Assembly (NCBI GenBank): GCA_051867285.1
Contig: JBJDYL010000097.1
Coordinates: 740 to 64,739 of the forward strand
Source of the DNA: Faecousia sp.
GTDB lineage: Bacteria; Bacillota; Clostridia; Oscillospirales; Oscillospiraceae
DNA: 64,000 nt
Direction of reading: 5' to 3'
The notes beneath the pieces are model-generated. The model saw only the letters and a program-made list of their open reading frames with translations, did no database searches and was not told the origin of the DNA. A program made the translations under genes and the position numbers. Every line of letters begins with the position of its first letter. The stretch's first letter is position 1. Positions 56,409-63,654 of this stretch are shown piece after piece.

Positions 56409-56425
56409 AGTTTTTTATAAAAAAA

Positions 56426-56548
56426 CCTTCCCCTTTGGGGAAGGCGAAACGGAAGAGGGAAACACGCGCACATACACCTTGGGACAAATCAACCAGAAAA
56501 CCTCTCCTGACCTCGCTGGCGCCCGGCCACCCTCCCCAAAGGGGAGGG
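56426..56548. repeat. REP-like element with palindromic ends
   Basis: CCTTCCCC-TTT-GGGGAAGG at 56426-56444 and CCCTCCCC-AAA-GGGGAGGG at 56530-56548. Confidence 0.6.
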
Positions 56549-56558
56549 CATATTGGTT

Positions 56559-56921
56559 CTACTTCGGCACAATACCGTTGGTCAGCGCCTGCGTAAAGGT
56601 GAATTGATAACTGACCACATTCTCCTTTGGCTCCTGGGTCAGCTCCAGCCCGGTGAAGTAGCAGTAACGAATGCCCCAGATGGGGTGTTCCAAATTGCCG
56701 GGGGTGCTGTCCTCTATCAGCAGCGCCAGCTGTTTGAACTGGTCGTAGGCGTCCGCACCATAGAATACGCCGGTACCGGTGATGGTTCGTTTCAAATCCC
56801 CCATGCCATCGAAATAGGTCACGCCGCTTTCCGTATGGTATTGAGGATCCCGGCTGGTTTTTTCCTCATAAGTGTGGGGATTCCGGGGCCAGACAAAGGT
56901 TTTATAGCTAAGACAATCCAT
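56559..56921 (-). CDS. Phage tail-tube-initiator / DNA-circularisation N-terminal-like protein
   Basis: LSYKTFVWPRNP, MGDLKRTITGTGVFYG, PGNLEHP, FTGLELTQEP..VSYQFTF. Confidence 0.6.
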   Translation of the reverse strand: MDCLSYKTFVWPRNPHTYEEKTSRDPQYHTESGVTYFDGMGDLKRTITGTGVFYGADAYDQFKQLALLIEDSTPGNLEHPIWGIRYCYFTGLELTQEPKENVVSYQFTFTQALTNGIVPK

Positions 56922-57623
56922 TTATACCTCCCTGCGCGCCAGCGCCACGCCTTTGCGGGTGCGCCGCATTCCTTCTTTGGTAAATTCCCGCCGGGTACTG
57001 AGCCAGGTGCAGCCGGTGAATTCCTCGGTTTTCTGATCCGTCACCAGCCGCAGGGTAAATCCCGGTTCCGGCTCTTCCGTGATGCCGGAACCTGCCGGAA
57101 TCAGCTCCTCCAGATCGATGCTCCAGTAATGGCTGCCCTCGCTGACGCCTGTGGGAACCGCTTCGCCCATGACAAACTCCACCTGTCTGCCAGTGTATTC
57201 CTCCACCGTGATCTTCATGGCGAACCGCTGAACCAGATCGTCGATGTAGCAGTAAAACCCTGGCCAGATTACGCAGTTGTCCGCGTCGGTAATTCCGGTA
57301 AAGGTTGCCAGTACGCTCACCACATACACCTGAGACACCCCGTCGTAGGTACATCCGTTCTGCACGCACACCGCCCCGGCCCAACGCAGAATCTCCGTCG
57401 CCCGCAGGGCTTCCACCTCACAGGCGGTGCCGCCGGTGGAGGCGGGGCAAATAATGCTGACCTCCATAGTCACCGTCAGATTGGCGCGGTCCACCTTTTC
57501 GATATGTACCGTTGCCACGGTTTCCCCGATCTGGGGATACTTCTGGCCGGGGTAGGCAGCATCCGCACGGAACCCTGCTTCCCGCAGCCGCCGCAGCACC
57601 AACTCTAGGATTGAGTACCCCAT
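56922..57623 (-). CDS. Putative tail terminator, possibly fused to a tube-like domain
   Basis: Position after the head-closure gene; apparent two-domain beta-rich pattern; start set at MGYSIL. Confidence 0.5.
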   Translation of the reverse strand: MGYSILELVLRRLREAGFRADAAYPGQKYPQIGETVATVHIEKVDRANLTVTMEVSIICPASTGGTACEVEALRATEILRWAGAVCVQNGCTYDGVSQVYVVSVLATFTGITDADNCVIWPGFYCYIDDLVQRFAMKITVEEYTGRQVEFVMGEAVPTGVSEGSHYWSIDLEELIPAGSGITEEPEPGFTLRLVTDQKTEEFTGCTWLSTRREFTKEGMRRTRKGVALARREV

Positions 57624-57949
57624 GTATCGTTCACACCCTTCTCCACGCACAGCCCCCATTGGTAAATGGGCTGATTTCCATAGTAATATGGCTCCACCCG
57701 ACGAAACAGATAGGTTCGATTCCCCAGAATCAGGGTATCCCCCTCCTTCACCGTCACGCCCACGGGGCCCATGTATACATACTGCCCCCGGGAGATTTCT
57801 CCCAGCAACGACACAACACTCTCCATATTCTGCCAGCTTTTGGAATTCACCGCCCGGAAGAATCCCCGGGCGGCTTTGGTTTCCTCACCGCTGACAATGG
57901 TCATGTCCGTGCCGTACCGAGCCATGACCTTTTCCACGGTCTGCCGCAT
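57605..57949 (-). CDS. Putative head-closure (stopper) protein
   Basis: 114 aa, beta-rich, VKEGDTLILGNRTYLFRRVE; canonical position. Confidence 0.6.
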   Translation of the reverse strand: MRQTVEKVMARYGTDMTIVSGEETKAARGFFRAVNSKSWQNMESVVSLLGEISRGQYVYMGPVGVTVKEGDTLILGNRTYLFRRVEPYYYGNQPIYQWGLCVEKGVNDTWGTQS

Positions 57950-57952
57950 TGG

Positions 57953-58315
57953 TCACACCCCCTGGAAGCAGAAGGAATCCTTGAGATACGGGCGCAGCAA
58001 TCCCAACGCCTGCCGCGTCAGGCTCTCGGGAGAGAGTTGGCTGTTGCTCTGCCCCTGCTTCACCGTCAGATCTCCGGCCTGGAATTCCTGAATTTCCCCG
58101 CCGGCTCTGCCCTGGTACCACTGCCCCAGTGCATACAGGCTGGCAGCCGCCACAAAATCCTCCCGGCACTGTTCCGGCGTCACATCTTCTCTCAGCTGTG
58201 CCCCCAGCGTATTCACGGCAGCGCTGCACAGCAGCCGCAGCAGCTCCCGGCCGGGGGCGTCCAACTCCCCCGCCAGCAGCTCTGCCTGAGAAAAAGCCTG
58301 ATCAGCTACCATCAT
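57953..58315 (-). CDS. Putative head-tail connector (adaptor)
   Basis: 120 aa, helical with an IQEFQAGDLTV hairpin and LLRPY end; ATGA overlap with the capsid gene. Confidence 0.65.
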   Translation of the reverse strand: MMVADQAFSQAELLAGELDAPGRELLRLLCSAAVNTLGAQLREDVTPEQCREDFVAAASLYALGQWYQGRAGGEIQEFQAGDLTVKQGQSNSQLSPESLTRQALGLLRPYLKDSFCFQGV

Positions 58316-59337
58316 ACGTTCAGCACGCAGGCCGCGCCGTCGCAGATTTTGCCGAAACCGGAGATGGAGGTGATGGCGGCACGCTCCAGCTGCCGGTCAA
58401 TGAGCTTGTCGTACTCCACCAGCACATCCCCAGCGCGAACCAGCTCCAGCGCGTAGCGATTATCCAGTCCGATAATTACGCCGTCCGCCACGGCGGAGGT
58501 GCGGTGCAGCTGTGCGCCCAGAGGAGATGTCAGCTTGCCGGTACCCTGGAAATTCAGCCCGGTGAGGGGATTCTGCAGTTCAGGCACCTTCAAAAGCTTC
58601 ATCATGGTGGCAGTGGAGCACAGAATGGTGTTCATGGTGTAGGGGTCAAACTGTCCCCAGAACTCCACCAGCTGGTCGTAGCCCAGTGTGCCTCTGGTGC
58701 CGGAAATGGGGCTGGTGCCGATAGTGTACTGGACGGCGGCATTGTCGTTGCCATCCCCCTCGATCAGAACCTTCACCGCGTCGGCAAGCTGCTGCTTCTG
58801 GATGTGCGCGCCGATCTGCCGCAGCATGACGCTGAACAGATCCAGCTTCTGGAACCGCAGCGCCTCATAGGAAGCCACCAGCATTCTGCCCCGCTTGGTC
58901 AGGCTCACCAGATGCTCCTTGGTTTTGACCTCGGTTTCGGGGATGGACGCACCTTCCTCCACATCCTTCAGCTCCTTGTCGCTGTCCGTGGGGTTGGAAT
59001 AGATGGAACGGTAGTCCATGGCGTCGATCACCGTGGTGGTAGCGGTGATGGCAGGCAGAATATCGTTTTCCTCCATACCCTGCCGGACGGTTCTGGCGAT
59101 GTACTCCGGGAACAGCACCGCAGAATCCATAGTACGGAAGAATTTCTCCACGGGAGAAGATCCTGCCCCCTTTGCCCGGATGCCGAAGCGCTTCAGCTGA
59201 CGCTGAAAGGCATCGGTGCCCTCCAGCGCGGTGCCCCGGTAATTCTCGCTGGGATCCAGAGACTCCAGCACCTGGGTAAAGCTCATGCCCGCCTGCCGGT
59301 ACATGCCCTTTTCCAGTTTCAGATTGTCATAACCCAT
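58312..59337 (-). CDS. Major capsid protein (HK97 fold)
   Basis: VLFPEYIARTV, VEEGASIPET, LTKRGRMLVASYEAL, LIEGDG; canonical position after the protease; SD GGAGG. Confidence 0.88.
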   Translation of the reverse strand: MGYDNLKLEKGMYRQAGMSFTQVLESLDPSENYRGTALEGTDAFQRQLKRFGIRAKGAGSSPVEKFFRTMDSAVLFPEYIARTVRQGMEENDILPAITATTTVIDAMDYRSIYSNPTDSDKELKDVEEGASIPETEVKTKEHLVSLTKRGRMLVASYEALRFQKLDLFSVMLRQIGAHIQKQQLADAVKVLIEGDGNDNAAVQYTIGTSPISGTRGTLGYDQLVEFWGQFDPYTMNTILCSTATMMKLLKVPELQNPLTGLNFQGTGKLTSPLGAQLHRTSAVADGVIIGLDNRYALELVRAGDVLVEYDKLIDRQLERAAITSISGFGKICDGAACVLNV

Positions 59338-59397
59338 AATTTCATTTCCTCCTGTAATTGTAATAGTGTATGGTCACCGGATTTCACCGATTGTCCA

Positions 59398-60294
59398 TCA
59401 AATCAAAAAACCGCTCTCCACGGCATCCGCCTTCCCGGAAAAGCCCCCCAGCTGAGTAACAACGGGGAGCATCTCATCCAGCCGCGCCTGCAAAGCCTCC
59501 TTCAGCGCCAGCAGATCCTCGGCGGCGGCGGTCTTTGCCAGATTCCGCAGAACCTGCTCAGAAACCCCCAGCTCCAACGCCAGACCCAGCCGCACCACGC
59601 TGTCCTCCAGTTCCTTCTGATACCGCTTTCCCAGCTCCGCCTGCTTGCACAGAACCCGGTATTCCCCCTGCGCGCCGTGGAGCTCCGCCAGCTCCTTCAG
59701 CGCCGGGGTTTTTCCACCCATGGCCTTCAGCACGCCGGCCTCCCGCTGGGCAGGCACCGCCACGAAGGAAAATTCGTAGGCATCCACCGGCTCCTTCAGA
59801 ATCACCGCACAGGTCTGCCCCTCGTAATCTTCCCCCTTGACGTGCCCGCAGGTGCCGTACTCGCTGCCGCAGATGGAGCATACCGCCTGCCCCATGGCGC
59901 AGCCCACGCTCACCTCTTTTTTGATACCTGCCTCAATGTCGGCGATGATTTCGTCGTTGCTGCCGCCCCGGCGGATGTACGCCCAGGCCTTGATGTAGCT
60001 GACGCCCTGCTCTTTGACCACCTGGGTCTCAAAAATCCGGGCCACCTGTTTCTCCGCGCTCCACTTGTGATCCACGATGCCGGTTTTTCCGATGAACAGC
60101 TTCGCCAGCGCAGGCAGCGCCCCGGTGTCGAATCGCTCCCCATCCCGGTCAACCTGGTCATCGCACAGCCGCAGGGAGAACACATACACCTGCTCCCCAT
60201 TCAGCCGTGATTTTGCCAGCGCATTGATTTGCTCCAGCTGCATGGCGGTGGGCGCCCCGCTGTTTACCGCCTCCGCCGCTTTCCTTACTTCCAT
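59398..60294 (-). CDS. Prohead protease-scaffold fusion
   Basis: DRDGERF, IVDH, EVSVG, YEFSFVAVPAQ (HK97-type protease pattern), a CSIC...CGH insert and a C-terminal coiled coil. Confidence 0.78.
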   Translation of the reverse strand: MEVRKAAEAVNSGAPTAMQLEQINALAKSRLNGEQVYVFSLRLCDDQVDRDGERFDTGALPALAKLFIGKTGIVDHKWSAEKQVARIFETQVVKEQGVSYIKAWAYIRRGGSNDEIIADIEAGIKKEVSVGCAMGQAVCSICGSEYGTCGHVKGEDYEGQTCAVILKEPVDAYEFSFVAVPAQREAGVLKAMGGKTPALKELAELHGAQGEYRVLCKQAELGKRYQKELEDSVVRLGLALELGVSEQVLRNLAKTAAAEDLLALKEALQARLDEMLPVVTQLGGFSGKADAVESGFLI

Positions 60295-60316
60295 TTCATT
60301 TCCTCCTGTGATACTT

Positions 60317-60418
60317 TTGTCATTGCGCGCCAGTCCGCACAGAAACTATGGTATGATTGCCACTGACAATCATGGATTATCTTGATTCGCTGCGCGGAGC
60401 ACCACTGGCGTGGCAATC
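60317..60418. repeat. Nested REP-like palindrome
   Basis: GCCAGT...ACTGGC outer stem with a ~60-bp inner segment containing the ATGATTG...CAATCAT hairpin. Confidence 0.55.
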
Positions 60419-60421
60419 TCC

Positions 60422-61564
60422 TCAATTACCGCGCGCCTCTGCCCGGTATTTTTCCGCCTGCGCCCGGTTCAGTTCTGCCTGAGATTCCTGCGTGATGTCC
60501 TGCAGGCTGATGTCATCCCACTCAATCTGCACCCGGTTGTCCAAGCCCTCCAGCGCGAGGTAAGTCTGGCAAATTTTCCGCATGGCAGGCTCCACCGCCC
60601 GGCGGAGCGCCCACAGTTCCGAGGTCAGCAAATCCGCCTGCTGGGTGCTCATCCGTTCCGTAGTGCTCCAGCTTAAGCCCAGCAGGAAGGGCGGCAGACC
60701 GGTTTTCGCCACCAGCTGTTCCAGGATCTGCCGCACGGGCACTTCGGAATCCAGAATGGGAGCTTCCCCGCCGATGACCTTGATTTCCACGTCTCCCACC
60801 GCCACAAAATCCCGGACGGTGCCGTTTTTGGTGTCCTCCATGGCCTTCGCCCATTCCTCCGCAATGGCCTTGCCCCGCTCCTGAGCTGCTGCGCCGTCCA
60901 GTTCCTCGCCGCCCTTGCAGACCACACTGTAGCGAACGTTGCCTGCACGCTCCCAGTTCACACCGATGGTGTTGTAAATTTTCAGCAGCACGTCCGCCAG
61001 GAAGGGCATTCCCCGGAACATACTCACGCCATAGGGGTGGGAGGGTTCCGGATGCCAGGTGGTAAACAGCAGCAGATTCTGATAGGGCAGCGGGCGCATC
61101 AGCCCGTGCTCATCCATGCCCCACAGCACCGTTTCCAGGGCATTCTCCCCTTCCTGCACCTCCAGTGTCGTTACGTCCCCCCAGCAGACTGCCCGCAGCC
61201 GTCCACCGGCCACTATCAGTTCCCCCACAGCCCGGCCGTAGGTCAACAGGCTGTCCAGGTAGCCGCTTAAGAAACTCTCAATGCCCATCTGCCCCCGACC
61301 GCAGGGCATCATTTCCAAAAAGGTGTTGAGCCTTTTCTGAGCTTCCGGGCTGCCGCACTTTACCTGAAAACCGCCGCACAGCCGAACCATCTTCCCCACA
61401 GCGGCATCCAGTACCGGGATGGCCTCCCGCATTTCCCGGTATACCCGTTCCTCCCCGCCGCCCAGGGGTACGAAGCCCCGCATGGCGCCGAAGGGATGGG
61501 TGTCCCCGCAGCGCAGCTGACACACCGCCGCCACACCGCCGGATTCCTTCTTTTTCCGTTTCAA
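60422..61564 (-). CDS. Phage portal protein
   Basis: TTG start with SD AAGGAG; LLTYGRAVGE, PYGVSMF, GLPPFLLG, VQIEWDDI; directly after terL. Confidence 0.85.
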   Translation of the reverse strand: MKRKKKESGGVAAVCQLRCGDTHPFGAMRGFVPLGGGEERVYREMREAIPVLDAAVGKMVRLCGGFQVKCGSPEAQKRLNTFLEMMPCGRGQMGIESFLSGYLDSLLTYGRAVGELIVAGGRLRAVCWGDVTTLEVQEGENALETVLWGMDEHGLMRPLPYQNLLLFTTWHPEPSHPYGVSMFRGMPFLADVLLKIYNTIGVNWERAGNVRYSVVCKGGEELDGAAAQERGKAIAEEWAKAMEDTKNGTVRDFVAVGDVEIKVIGGEAPILDSEVPVRQILEQLVAKTGLPPFLLGLSWSTTERMSTQQADLLTSELWALRRAVEPAMRKICQTYLALEGLDNRVQIEWDDISLQDITQESQAELNRAQAEKYRAEARGN

Positions 61565-61585
61565 TCAAACAACTCCTTCCATATT

Positions 61586-61696
61586 TGAAATGCAAAATGC
61601 TGAATGCGAAATGCAGAATTGTAGGATTTCCTTCGGAAATGATTTTATTTTTATCCGAGGAGCGGACACCACTCTGCATTTTTCATTTTGCATTCA
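61586..61696. repeat. Heptamer-armed inverted repeat element
   Basis: Left arm TGCAAAA/TGCTGAA/TGCGAAA/TGCAGAA; right arm CTCTGCA/TTTTTCA/TTTTGCA. Confidence 0.65.
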
Positions 61697-62941
61697 TCTT
61701 CTTCCCCGTTCCACGCTGCACGCCGCGAAGCCCCCGCTTTTCTCCCCCAGTACAGTGGATACGAAGTAGCGCATATCGTCCATGGCGTGATCGTGCTCCT
61801 TGCGCACCCGATCTTTGCCGCTGCCTCCCGGCTCCCACAGGTACTCCCCCAGCTCCCGGATACAGTCGGCACAGGTTTCGCAGATCACGATTTTTCCGGT
61901 TTTCAGGCAGTCCGAAGTGAGACGAATGCCGCTGAGCACATCGTTTTTCGCCTTTCGCACCCGCCAACCCTTCCGCCGCAGCACCTCAATAAAGCTCGCC
62001 GCAGACGGATCCACGATCACGCCCCGAATCTCCCTGCCTCCAGCCAGAGCCGCCAGCGCATCGGCGTATTCCGCGTCGGTCATCTGCCGCTGCTGCTTCC
62101 GGGAGTCGAAATAGAATTCCTTCACCCGGTACCACACGCCTGCGCTTCTGCCCCAAAGGCCCATGGAGGTGGGATTTACCGTTCCATAATCGCAGGAAAT
62201 GTACCATTGCTCGCAGGCTTCCGGGACTTTTCCCAGCATATCTGCCGTAAAAAAGTCATAAACCCGTCCTTCCGCCTGCACCCACTGTCCTAAAATGTAC
62301 CGCTGGTAGAATACGCCCGTATACAGCCGCTGGTAACGCCCGCGAATGGCCTCCGTCAGGGAAGGATTATCCTCCATGGTAAAGGAAAGCCGCAGGCAGT
62401 TCCGTTTTTCCGCTTCCAGAATCCAGGTTTTGTAGAACCAGTGCTCCGGCCCCTCCGGGTTGCAGTTGAACCACAGGCGGCTTCCGGCAATGCTGCACCT
62501 AGCGCAGGCCTGCTCCACAAAGCTGCGGGGCATCAGCGCCGTTTCGTCCAGCAGCACCCCGGCAAAGGTAATGCCCTGGATCAGTGACGCGGAGCTTTCG
62601 TCCCGCCCGCCGAAGGTGTAAAAGTGGTTTTTGTGCCCCCACAGGGTCACCGTCACCAGATTTTCCGTTCTTTTTTCCCGCCAGACAGCTCCCAGGGCGG
62701 TCAGCTGGGGCAGAATTTCCGACAGCACATTCCGCCGCAGGGACGCGATGGTTTTTCCGCACACGCCAAATTTCTGCCCGTCAAAACAGCACATGGCCCA
62801 CAGGAAAAAGCTCAAGCCCATGGCCAGAGTTTTTCCGGAACGAACCGCCCCGTCGCAGACAATGGCCTCCTTCTCCCGATAAGGCGAATCCGGCATCCAC
62901 CAGGTCAGTACAATTCTCTGCTTGGGAGAAAACTCCCTCAT
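61694..62941 (-). CDS. terL: Terminase large subunit (PBSX-like)
   Basis: Walker A DGAVRSGKT, Walker B VLLDE, NCNP, nuclease motifs SCDYG, VDPSA, DHAMDDMRY. Confidence 0.93.
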   Translation of the reverse strand: MREFSPKQRIVLTWWMPDSPYREKEAIVCDGAVRSGKTLAMGLSFFLWAMCCFDGQKFGVCGKTIASLRRNVLSEILPQLTALGAVWREKRTENLVTVTLWGHKNHFYTFGGRDESSASLIQGITFAGVLLDETALMPRSFVEQACARCSIAGSRLWFNCNPEGPEHWFYKTWILEAEKRNCLRLSFTMEDNPSLTEAIRGRYQRLYTGVFYQRYILGQWVQAEGRVYDFFTADMLGKVPEACEQWYISCDYGTVNPTSMGLWGRSAGVWYRVKEFYFDSRKQQRQMTDAEYADALAALAGGREIRGVIVDPSAASFIEVLRRKGWRVRKAKNDVLSGIRLTSDCLKTGKIVICETCADCIRELGEYLWEPGGSGKDRVRKEHDHAMDDMRYFVSTVLGEKSGGFAACSVERGRR

Positions 62942-63261
62942 GGAGTGTCACCGCCCCGCAGTGCCTGCAAAAATTCTGCCATTTCCCCTTCCTGTCCGCC
63001 GGTTTCCGCGGAAAGTGCCTCCAACGCCCGCAGGCGGTCAATGAGCCTGACCTCCACGGTCCCCTTGTCGTTGCGTTTGACTTCACTGAGCAGGCTCAAA
63101 TCCAGCCCCTCCAGATCCGGCTGTTCCTCCAGCACCAGCTTCACGCAATCGTTGGCTCTGCCGAACGCCAGCTCTGCCAGCCGCCGTATCACATCCTGCT
63201 TTCGGATTTTCCCGGAACGGATTCTTCTGTCCAGCGCGCCCGCTGATTCTTCCCGTTTCAT
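62938..63261 (-). CDS. terS: Terminase small subunit (short form)
   Basis: VIRRLAELAFG...LSEVKRNDKGTVEVRLIDRLRALEAL; ATGA overlap with terL; SD GAAAGGAGG. Confidence 0.78.
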   Translation of the reverse strand: MKREESAGALDRRIRSGKIRKQDVIRRLAELAFGRANDCVKLVLEEQPDLEGLDLSLLSEVKRNDKGTVEVRLIDRLRALEALSAETGGQEGEMAEFLQALRGGDTP

Positions 63262-63365
63262 TGCAGCCTCCTTTCACCAGTAGCCCCAAACAGGCCGAAA
63301 GTTGCACACGGACGTGCAACCTCGGAAAAATTTTTAATGCTTATCGCGTTTACTCAGCTGCGTAA

Positions 63366-63622: not shown

Positions 63623-63654
63623 AAAACCGCCGCGGAGATTTCCGCGGCGGTTTT
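63623..63654 (-). terminator. Terminator downstream of galE
   Basis: AAAACCGCCGCGGA-GATT-TCCGCGGCGGTTTT; a second hairpin lies at about 63591-63619. Confidence 0.72.

Follow-up and report, generated by a model that had tools for sequence, protein, structure and literature searches.

A compact phage-type head and packaging operon in Faecousia (Oscillospiraceae) as a candidate gene transfer agent-like element

Organization of the operon and its surroundings

The stretch of DNA considered here, referred to as the window, comprises 64,000 nucleotides (nt) of contig JBJDYL010000097.1 (positions 740 to 64,739, forward strand) from a Faecousia sp. genome of the family Oscillospiraceae (GenBank assembly GCA_051867285.1). 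This genome, G000 in our numbering, is 83.6% complete. At 56559-63261 the window contains an operon of nine genes for phage-type DNA packaging, capsid and neck proteins, which, judged from its sequence, is a plausible candidate for the production of a gene transfer agent (GTA)-like particle. All nine open reading frames (ORFs) lie on the minus strand and were found open upon reading and translation. Their order is terS, terL, portal, protease/scaffold (g4), major capsid protein (MCP), g6, g7, g8 and g9. The spacing is tight, with 4-nt overlaps between terS and terL (62938-62941) and between the MCP gene and g6 (58312-58315), and with g8 directly abutting g9 (56922/56921).

The small terminase gene terS (62938..63261) encodes 107 amino acids (aa) and was recognized by Pfam Terminase_2 (E 1.9e-5) and phrog_51. 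The match spans only positions 54-126 of the 141 in the Terminase_2 profile, so that TerS lacks the N-terminal DNA-binding part of that profile. The large terminase, TerL (61694..62941, 415 aa), matched Terminase_6N (E 2.8e-14), Terminase_6C and phrog_2 (E 7e-51); its ATPase and nuclease motifs are intact and legible in the translation, i.e., Walker A GAVRSGKT, Walker B VLLDE and the nuclease Asp. The portal gene (60422..61564; phrog_30703, E 1e-148) encodes up to 380 aa from an uncertain TTG start. The MCP (58312..59337, 341 aa) is of the HK97 type according to Phage_capsid_4 (E 6e-16) and phrog_3922 (E 3e-104). Between portal and capsid lies g4 (59398..60294, 298 aa; phrog_16951, E 2e-95). 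Its predicted model, with a predicted local distance difference test value (pLDDT) of 75, has the T4 gp21 prohead protease as the top PDB match (5jbl, E 3.6e-3, probability 0.99), and herpesvirus assemblins and proteases rank after it. In the alignment of g4 orthologues H76 is nearly invariant, while S129, C132, C139, C142, C149, H151 and C162 are invariant, and the C-terminal third of the protein is helical. The model thus points to a prohead protease of assemblin fold with a Cys/His insert and a scaffold-like tail. The cluster formed by the five cysteines and H151 is located between beta strands and resembles a zinc-binding insert; we know of no such insert in prohead proteases of the HK97 or T4 type. 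The initiation contexts of the capsid and protease genes (59339-59358 and 60293-60312) are near-identical 20-nt repeats, reading ATTACAGGAGGAAATGAAAT on the coding strand.

Three of the nine proteins remained without any family in the Pfam and PHROG scans, and profile searches with g4, g6, g7 and g8 against PDB sequences returned nothing meaningful. The product of g6 (57953..58315, 120 aa) had no match in Pfam, PHROG or PDB sequences, and that of g7 (57605..57949, 114 aa) had no sequence match in PDB. A feature-based atlas search gave language-model look-alikes for both, which we took as leads: Phage_connect_1/DUF3199 clusters for g6 (score 0.97), and Phage_attach and head-tail joining clusters for g7 (score 0.94). 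By these look-alikes g6 is probably a head-tail adaptor and g7 probably a head-closure or head-tail joining protein. The position of g6 is kept in all Faecousia loci examined. The gene g8 (56922..57623, 233 aa) starts at 57623 and not at 57659, as the upstream extension has stops in many species (33 orthologues aligned). Its AlphaFold model (pLDDT 83) shows two beta-sandwich domains of the tube fold, and Foldseek matched it in PDB with the neck-tail junction/tail terminator of phage 812 (8r5g_C, E 2e-6) and the Mu terminator. Further matches were tube proteins of phiCD508, monocin and lambda, as well as the two-domain T5 tip protein. The g8 protein is therefore described here as a fusion of a tail-terminator-like and a tube-like protein. 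The last gene, g9 (56559..56921, 120 aa), matched Pfam DNA_circ_N (E 7e-7) and the baseplate hub phrog_184 (E 2e-8), corresponding to the N-terminal domain, encoded on its own, of a Mu-type baseplate hub, or tube initiator. A predicted complex of g8 and g9 (score 0.30, mark 0.32) is not evidence either way.

The operon is surrounded by host genes, with galE on one side and genes for an M23 peptidase and an elongation factor G (EF-G)-like protein on the other. The galE gene has a terminator of its own at 63623-63654, and the contig ends about 437 nt past the window, inside galE. In the closest relative, G106, the region upstream of the block contains galE together with genes for a kinase and a sugar ABC transporter, and no integrase. 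The GC content of the block is similar to that of its flanks. DNA similarity between the modules of different species starts about 70 nt upstream of terS and ends at the g9 stop codon (about 56560). At the 3' end of the operon the terminator scan and the sequence itself revealed two G+C-rich hairpins (56425..56548, minus strand), of which the second (56445-56425), with a T-run behind it, has the appearance of an intrinsic terminator. No att-like direct repeats bracket the block. No integrase, replication gene or regulator was found in the block or in the adjoining flanks of the window and four relatives, whose flanking ORFs were scanned against Pfam and gave host-type domains or no match; for most of the 45 Faecousia loci described below the flanks were compared as DNA only. 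An AlpA-type regulator was likewise absent from the block and the flanks examined. Two neighbouring genes were considered as parts of the system and rejected. The M23 peptidase has orthologues in genomes without the module and lies far from the module in G007 and G022, and a conserved upstream gene of about 287 aa, present in 8 fetched genomes and considered as a regulator, is an amidohydrolase-like host gene.

A preliminary description of this locus, made from the letters of the window, had listed the nine ORFs with their overlaps and abutting junction, the TerL ATPase and nuclease motifs, a protease/scaffold, a terminator-tube protein followed by an initiator, host-like neighbours, a base composition like that of the flanks, and the lack of an integrase and att repeats. 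These readings agree with what we found: the coordinates are the same, the protease is backed by the gp21-like fold with H76, S129 and the helical C-terminus, g8 and g9 by the Foldseek and profile matches, respectively, and the absences by the flank scans and the direct-repeat search.

Distribution, selection and origin of the module

The Faecousia genomes are all metagenome-assembled genomes of uncultured organisms. The capsid gene was present in 79 of 201 species genomes (39%) and in 23 of the 48 genomes that are at least 90% complete (48%). It is nearly always single-copy, and its reading frame is open in every match except one (G172). Forty-five loci were fetched, and all of them had a block of 6.0-6.8 kb with one gene order and without tail genes. 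The MCP is exactly 341 aa long in each of the 45, the lengths of the genes are constant, and 43 loci have no internal stops. In-frame stops at MCP codon 21 and g4 codon 77 in G172 (L071), and at portal codon 301 in G119 (L062), were the sole signs of decay. Outside the six closest species, where the galE, M23 and EF-G neighbourhood is kept, the loci are flanked by different host genes (solute-binding proteins, adenine deaminase, aldolase), sometimes with one flank in common. Relatives of the cluster also occur in two GenBank records from human faeces labelled 'Bacteriophage sp.', MT835508.1 (L018) and MT835769.1 (L019), which are bacterial contigs. The possibility that such matches are complete phages was rejected, given that MT835508 (46.7 kb) consists mostly of ABC-transporter and other host genes around the cluster.

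Nonsynonymous to synonymous ratios (dN/dS) and synonymous divergences (dS) were computed against eight relatives, and the ranges per gene refer to the seven closest. Ratios were lowest for the MCP (0.04-0.06) and the portal (0.05-0.08), followed by g9 (0.07-0.12), TerL (0.09-0.12), g4 (0.12-0.16), g8 (0.11-0.19) and TerS (0.16-0.32). Eight of the nine genes thus fall within 0.04-0.32, with g6 higher (0.24-0.56). Against the more distant G007 the ratio of every gene was higher, e.g., 0.15 for MCP, 0.19 for TerL and 0.39 for g8. The dS of the module genes was 0.5-1.2, and that of the adjacent genes 0.48-0.65 (EF-G-like), 0.75-1.0 (M23) and 0.44-0.74 (galE), so that in the closest clade the module has diverged about as much as its flanking host genes. 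These values speak for domestication and purifying selection of the module. A separate observation concerns the EF-G-like gene of G185 (L244 / G185:C49:4-2058), which has 89% protein identity and a dN/dS of 0.14, while the genes of its sister species at equal dS show 95-96% identity and a dN/dS of about 0.04.

For a comparison of trees we used 36 genomes, with the EF-G-like gene as host marker and concatenated TerL, portal and MCP for the module. Pairwise distances were correlated (Mantel r 0.55, p 2e-4), and 8 of 33 splits were shared, against 0.13 expected by label shuffling and a maximum of 3 in 2000 shuffles. Supported conflicts were found at G101 and in the arrangement of G080/G098/G168, which makes some exchange between species likely. 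The picture is one of long residence and co-divergence with the host, accompanied by losses on several occasions and by some exchange among Faecousia species, and not one of recent mobility or of decay. The preliminary description had placed the module among domesticated ones rather than decaying prophages, and the intact state of 43 of 45 loci, their single copies, the purifying selection and the dS shared with flanking genes speak for the same. Of the features which it had named as support, dN/dS well below 1 was observed; single copies were observed as well, although in only part of the genus; tree congruence was partial, with the correlation and shared splits on one side and the supported conflicts on the other; and conserved synteny did not hold beyond the six closest species.

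Single copies of this capsid family were detected in 129 of 295 high-quality Oscillospiraceae genomes (about 44%) and in 57 of 101 genera sampled. In 20 loci from other genera, tblastn with all head genes showed a homologous head module in the same order, with MCPs 61-75% identical. Nineteen of them are long forms, spanning 11-14 kb, that also encode parts of a tail (sheath, tube or baseplate J). Downstream of the head genes they encode a sheath-like protein, a tube, a g9-like hub, further hub or baseplate proteins and a Baseplate_J-like protein, with a holin in three loci. The g9-like gene is there placed between tube and baseplate genes. In all 45 Faecousia loci the sheath, tube, hub-body and baseplate J genes are absent downstream of the neck genes, and the remnants of a tail are the hub N-domain g9 and the tube-fold fusion g8. 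As the head genes of other genera lead tailed clusters of 11-14 kb, the Faecousia operon is, by this comparison, a tail-reduced derivative of a family-wide particle cluster resembling PBSX of Bacillus subtilis. The twentieth locus, of about 8.5 kb in G487 (L252, G487:C67:8900-28899), is intermediate. Its capsid is 75% identical and the closest outside Faecousia, and it retains tube, g9-like and next hub gene without sheath or Baseplate_J. This cluster is possibly a step in the reduction of the tail. Unlinked tail genes were not found in the G000 assembly by tblastn with the tail and baseplate proteins of the long-form relative G032, nor did that assembly, 83.6% complete, give any Baseplate_J, tape-measure, fibre or receptor-binding protein (RBP) match.

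The conserved leader and the unlinked lysis cassette

The operon is preceded by a conserved 5' leader of 86 nt (63253..63338, minus strand), defined from an alignment of 35 species. It consists of an A/T-rich stretch, a hairpin, a T-rich stretch, the Shine-Dalgarno block CTACTGGTGAAAGGAGG and the ATG of terS. In the window the hairpin is GTTGCAC-N6-GTGCAAC at 63301-63320, and nearly all copies upstream of terS have a GTTGCAC-N4-6-GTGCAAC hairpin, a T-rich stretch, TAYGGGTGAAAGGAGG and a start codon. The stem has an invariant TTG...CAA core, and compensatory changes were seen in 6 of its 10 pairs, both inside and outside the core, along with UUCG loops and G-U pairs. Across species 90% of the stem is paired, with 38 double-change cells against 12.9 in shuffled alignments (none of 500 reached the observed value); controls slid along the alignment were far lower. 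In G000 the stem can be extended to a stack with 12 of 13 positions paired, and the folding energy of the 77-nt leader is -25.1 kcal/mol. The palindrome in front of terS is thus a genuine element, kept throughout the genus and the family and showing covariation. Upstream of terS it was found in 8 of the 20 clusters collected from other genera.

A covariance model, R1, was built from the leader and used to find further sites. In G007 and G103 the second sites lie directly upstream of a holin of 135 aa (PF05105, E 2e-32). Homologues of this holin occur in 42 of 201 Faecousia genomes, and all 17 close orthologues belong to genomes bearing the module. The leader precedes the holin, or an Amidase_3-type endolysin together with the holin, in 17 of 18 loci (the 17 close orthologues and G103), while distant holins in genomes without the module lack the leader. 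In several species the holin cassette occupies one and the same host location, flanked by DUF896-like and ygiQ-like radical-SAM genes, where sister species of G000 carry a leader-holin or leader-amidase-holin cassette of 0.6-1.3 kb. We regard the shared leader as a signature of a small regulon, which would tie lysis to the expression of the particle genes in the way known from RcGTA and FpGTA, two systems considered below. The unlinked baseplate and lysis genes which the preliminary description had suggested looking for were in this way found in part: leader-holin cassettes exist in at least 17 other module-bearing species, whereas G000 itself yielded neither tail nor lysis genes.

Some further leader-like sites lie elsewhere. 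In G000 a search by regular expression and R1 gave one weak site only (C95:2472-2555; L155:1501-1584; 25 bits), upstream of neither lysis nor tail genes but in an AT-rich island in front of a SocA/Panacea gene, which is followed by a weak PemK/MazF-like ORF. A site of 38 bits in G007 (G007:C38:2039-2124; L170) is also in an AT-rich island and upstream of a SocA/Panacea gene. The leader-type element may thus also serve mobile defence or toxin-antitoxin genes. In G185, a member of the clade closest to G000, a clade variant of the leader, TTGCA...TGCAAAAAA...CCATTTGAGACTA, precedes a D5_N/DUF5906 primase-helicase-like gene (G185:C6:23605-23689; L211:1501-1585). This arrangement may indicate that a satellite- or phage-like element is controlled in the same way. 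One weak R1 site in G210 was dismissed as unrelated, being inside the tail-lysis region of an ordinary prophage (Dit-Tal-BppU-holin-amidase).

Comparison with known systems and interpretation

In architecture the closest parallel is PBSX of B. subtilis together with the long forms of Oscillospiraceae. These are likewise chromosomal, defective and phage-derived, and have the same order terS-terL-portal-protease-capsid-neck; with PBSX of B. subtilis the likeness is one of gene order and architecture, and the long forms share with the Faecousia operon homologous head genes, the g9-like hub and, in 8 of 20 loci, the leader. PBSX and the long forms differ in having sheath, free tube, hub body, baseplate J and linked holin, all of which the Faecousia operon lacks. 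PBSX packages random host DNA of 13 kb (PMC12946183).

Long-read sequencing of virus-like particles recently revealed that gut Ruminococcaceae and Oscillospiraceae package chromosomal DNA in a GTA-like manner (Borodovich et al., Nat Commun 2026, PMC12946183). A locus was identified only for Faecalibacterium and none for Oscillospiraceae (Onthomonas). Operon I of this FpGTA, from Faecalibacterium prausnitzii, is 10.5 kb long with ten ORFs, is of short-tailed-phage type, and has a TerS without DNA-binding domain; its capsids measure 40 nm, appear to lack a tail and contain 8.4-8.9 kb of DNA; baseplate, fibre, RBP, holin and endolysin genes are found in a second operon at a distance of 125 kb; and the system is near-ubiquitous in its genus (all PMC12946183). 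The Faecousia module resembles FpGTA in being a chromosomal head and packaging operon of gut Clostridia with a TerS devoid of an obvious DNA-binding domain. In FpGTA the lysis genes are at a second, unlinked locus, and in many Faecousia species an unlinked holin, with or without amidase, stands behind the leader of the operon. The FpGTA particles appear tail-less, and the Faecousia block has no tail genes beyond the stub. The differences are as clear. The neck and tail of FpGTA are of short-tailed-phage type, while the Faecousia module, 6.7 kb in length, has folds of long-tailed phages (tube, terminator, Mu hub); and where FpGTA has fibre and RBP genes and is near-ubiquitous, no fibre or RBP gene was found here and the module occurs in about 40-50% of species. 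The long-tailed-phage folds of the stub, together with the contractile-tailed relatives, suggest a lineage different from FpGTA. Set against the published description, the module resembles FpGTA in outline while probably being of another lineage. The possibility raised in the preliminary description of an undescribed GTA of gut Clostridia holds only in part, since an analogous GTA-like element was published in 2026, though one of short-tailed-phage type.

A third comparison is with RcGTA of Alphaproteobacteria, a vertically inherited system under purifying selection, in which the head and packaging cluster has no replication or integration genes, TerS is short and accessory lysis genes are located elsewhere. 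The Faecousia module is similar in its gene content, short TerS, purifying selection and, in many species, separate lysis genes. RcGTA differs from it in a complete siphovirus-type tail, head spikes, fibres, synteny across an order and proven transfer. In general terms, what is found in Faecousia is a chromosomal structural and packaging cluster without genes for replication, integration or lysogeny, as is characteristic of GTAs, and it does not display the pseudogenes, relaxed selection and variable truncation by which decaying remnants are recognized.

We estimate at about 0.6 the probability that the locus is a host-resident, selected and host-controlled operon for an essentially tail-less particle that packages DNA. 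Such an operon would build an HK97-type capsid, which the motor of TerS, TerL and portal would fill with DNA. Instead of a tail, the capsid would be closed by the neck and a stub of one ring, made of the terminator-tube fusion and the hub N-domain. In many species the leader hairpin would put the operon and the unlinked holin cassette, with or without amidase, under one control. Production is probably triggered by a trans-acting factor in a subpopulation of cells and would end in lysis, with release of DNA-filled particles in the manner of GTAs. That particles are made, take up host DNA non-specifically, leave the cell by lysis and deliver anything to recipients is inferred; a TerS without a DNA-recognition part is an indirect hint of the non-specific packaging. 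A more far-reaching version, in which Faecousia carries a host-owned and truly tail-less GTA, co-produced with the unlinked holin through a family-wide leader regulon and delivering DNA in an unconventional way (by docking onto the tails of unrelated resident phages, as a chromosomal counterpart to the tail piracy of capsid-forming islands discussed below, or by uptake of DNA from released capsids), appears to us unlikely. In animal-gut metatranscriptomes (two runs) short near-identical contigs covered g9, g8, MCP and terS at depths of 2-5 against 35-600 on the EF-G-like gene; this would fit low expression, but as these are assembled contigs, with possible carry-over of DNA and depths that cannot rank genes, they were not counted as evidence.

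Several observations weigh against this interpretation. Presence is patchy in the genus, with the values of 39% and 48% given above, and of the 20 relatives closest in EF-G identity only 14 carry the module; the six lacking it include four genomes that are 90-99% complete, some of them 97-99%. The galE/M23/EF-G synteny is confined to the six closest species, and the module and host trees are in supported conflict at the places mentioned. In G000 the holin site is empty, with about 17 nt between the DUF896-like and ygiQ-like genes (C14:37350-37400), and the 83.6%-complete assembly has no PF05105 match or homologue of the holin or amidase, which leaves G000 without a recognized release function. 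Weaker leader copies precede Panacea/toxin-antitoxin and D5-type primase genes in mobile islands, and the controlling factor could for this reason be phage-borne or common to mobile elements rather than host-borne. Finally, a particle without tail fibres or baseplate has no obvious route for delivering DNA.

Part of these observations would fit a satellite-like 'tail pirate', whose tail-less, DNA-filled capsids dock onto the tails of a co-resident or infecting phage, with the leader as a late-control element driven by a phage activator. Phage-inducible chromosomal islands that form capsids (cf-PICIs) reportedly carry terS, terL, portal, protease, capsid and connector genes. The gene content of the Faecousia block, with no tail, equals this morphogenetic module; neck and terminator-like proteins are kept under selection; leader-like sites stand before D5_N/DUF5906 primase and Panacea genes in AT-rich islands; and the patchy presence and some of the tree conflicts are in line with it. 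The cf-PICIs, however, are mobile islands that package themselves and bring along an integrase, att sites, regulators and a primase-replicase. Neither the Faecousia block nor the flanks examined next to it contained an integrase, att repeats, an AlpA-type regulator or a replication gene. Unlike mobile islands, the block co-diverges with its flanks, its dS matching that of the host genes in the syntenic clade. It is present in one copy per genome, and the parent cluster is family-wide, chromosomal and equipped with a tail of its own. The hub-capped terminator-tube fusion would moreover resemble a closed stub and not an open docking face. For these reasons we find dependence on phage tails improbable. 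The cf-PICIs, with their own head and packaging genes and no tail, release tail-less capsids (10.1101/2025.02.11.637232).

The selection on all nine genes demonstrates a benefit but not its kind, and the host could keep the capsid for a purpose other than transfer, such as interference with phages, in which capsids or terminase draw off the DNA or tails of an invader, the provision of DNA to biofilms or as a nutrient, or a lost competitive function like that of PBSX. The lack of a holin or delivery apparatus in G000 points in this direction, as does PBSX, the closest studied architecture, which packages DNA yet acts as a killing particle (PMC12946183). On the other hand, killing of the PBSX type needs a contractile tail, and the Faecousia operon has lost it. 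The constraint on TerS, TerL and portal equals that on the capsid, which argues for selection on DNA packaging itself, and a leader common to the lysis cassette in many species fits the release of particles. We consider a non-transfer role an improbable explanation of the locus. The remaining alternative, an inert remnant of a prophage or of a long-form cluster that has not yet decayed, would account for the missing tail, baseplate and lysis genes, the stops in two of the 45 species (G172 and G119) and the loss of the module from many others. It is hardly compatible with nine intact genes whose dN/dS values are 0.04-0.3 in eight and 0.24-0.56 in g6 over a dS of 0.5-1.2, with an invariant MCP length and similar block boundaries in 45 species, or with a leader conserved through compensatory changes, and we consider it very improbable. 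The host-kept, DNA-packaging particle operon is thus the reading we retain.

The capsid family occurs in some 44% of the high-quality Oscillospiraceae genomes and 57 of the 101 genera sampled, which makes this cluster a concrete candidate for the missing packaging machinery of Oscillospiraceae, and its Faecousia form shows a reduction to head and stub that is still retained by selection. The conserved leader upstream of terS and of the unlinked holin or amidase-holin cassettes is newly described here, and it offers a way towards the remaining members of the regulon and the factor that controls them. If the particles move DNA, they would constitute a major overlooked route of gene flow among abundant anaerobes of the animal and human gut.

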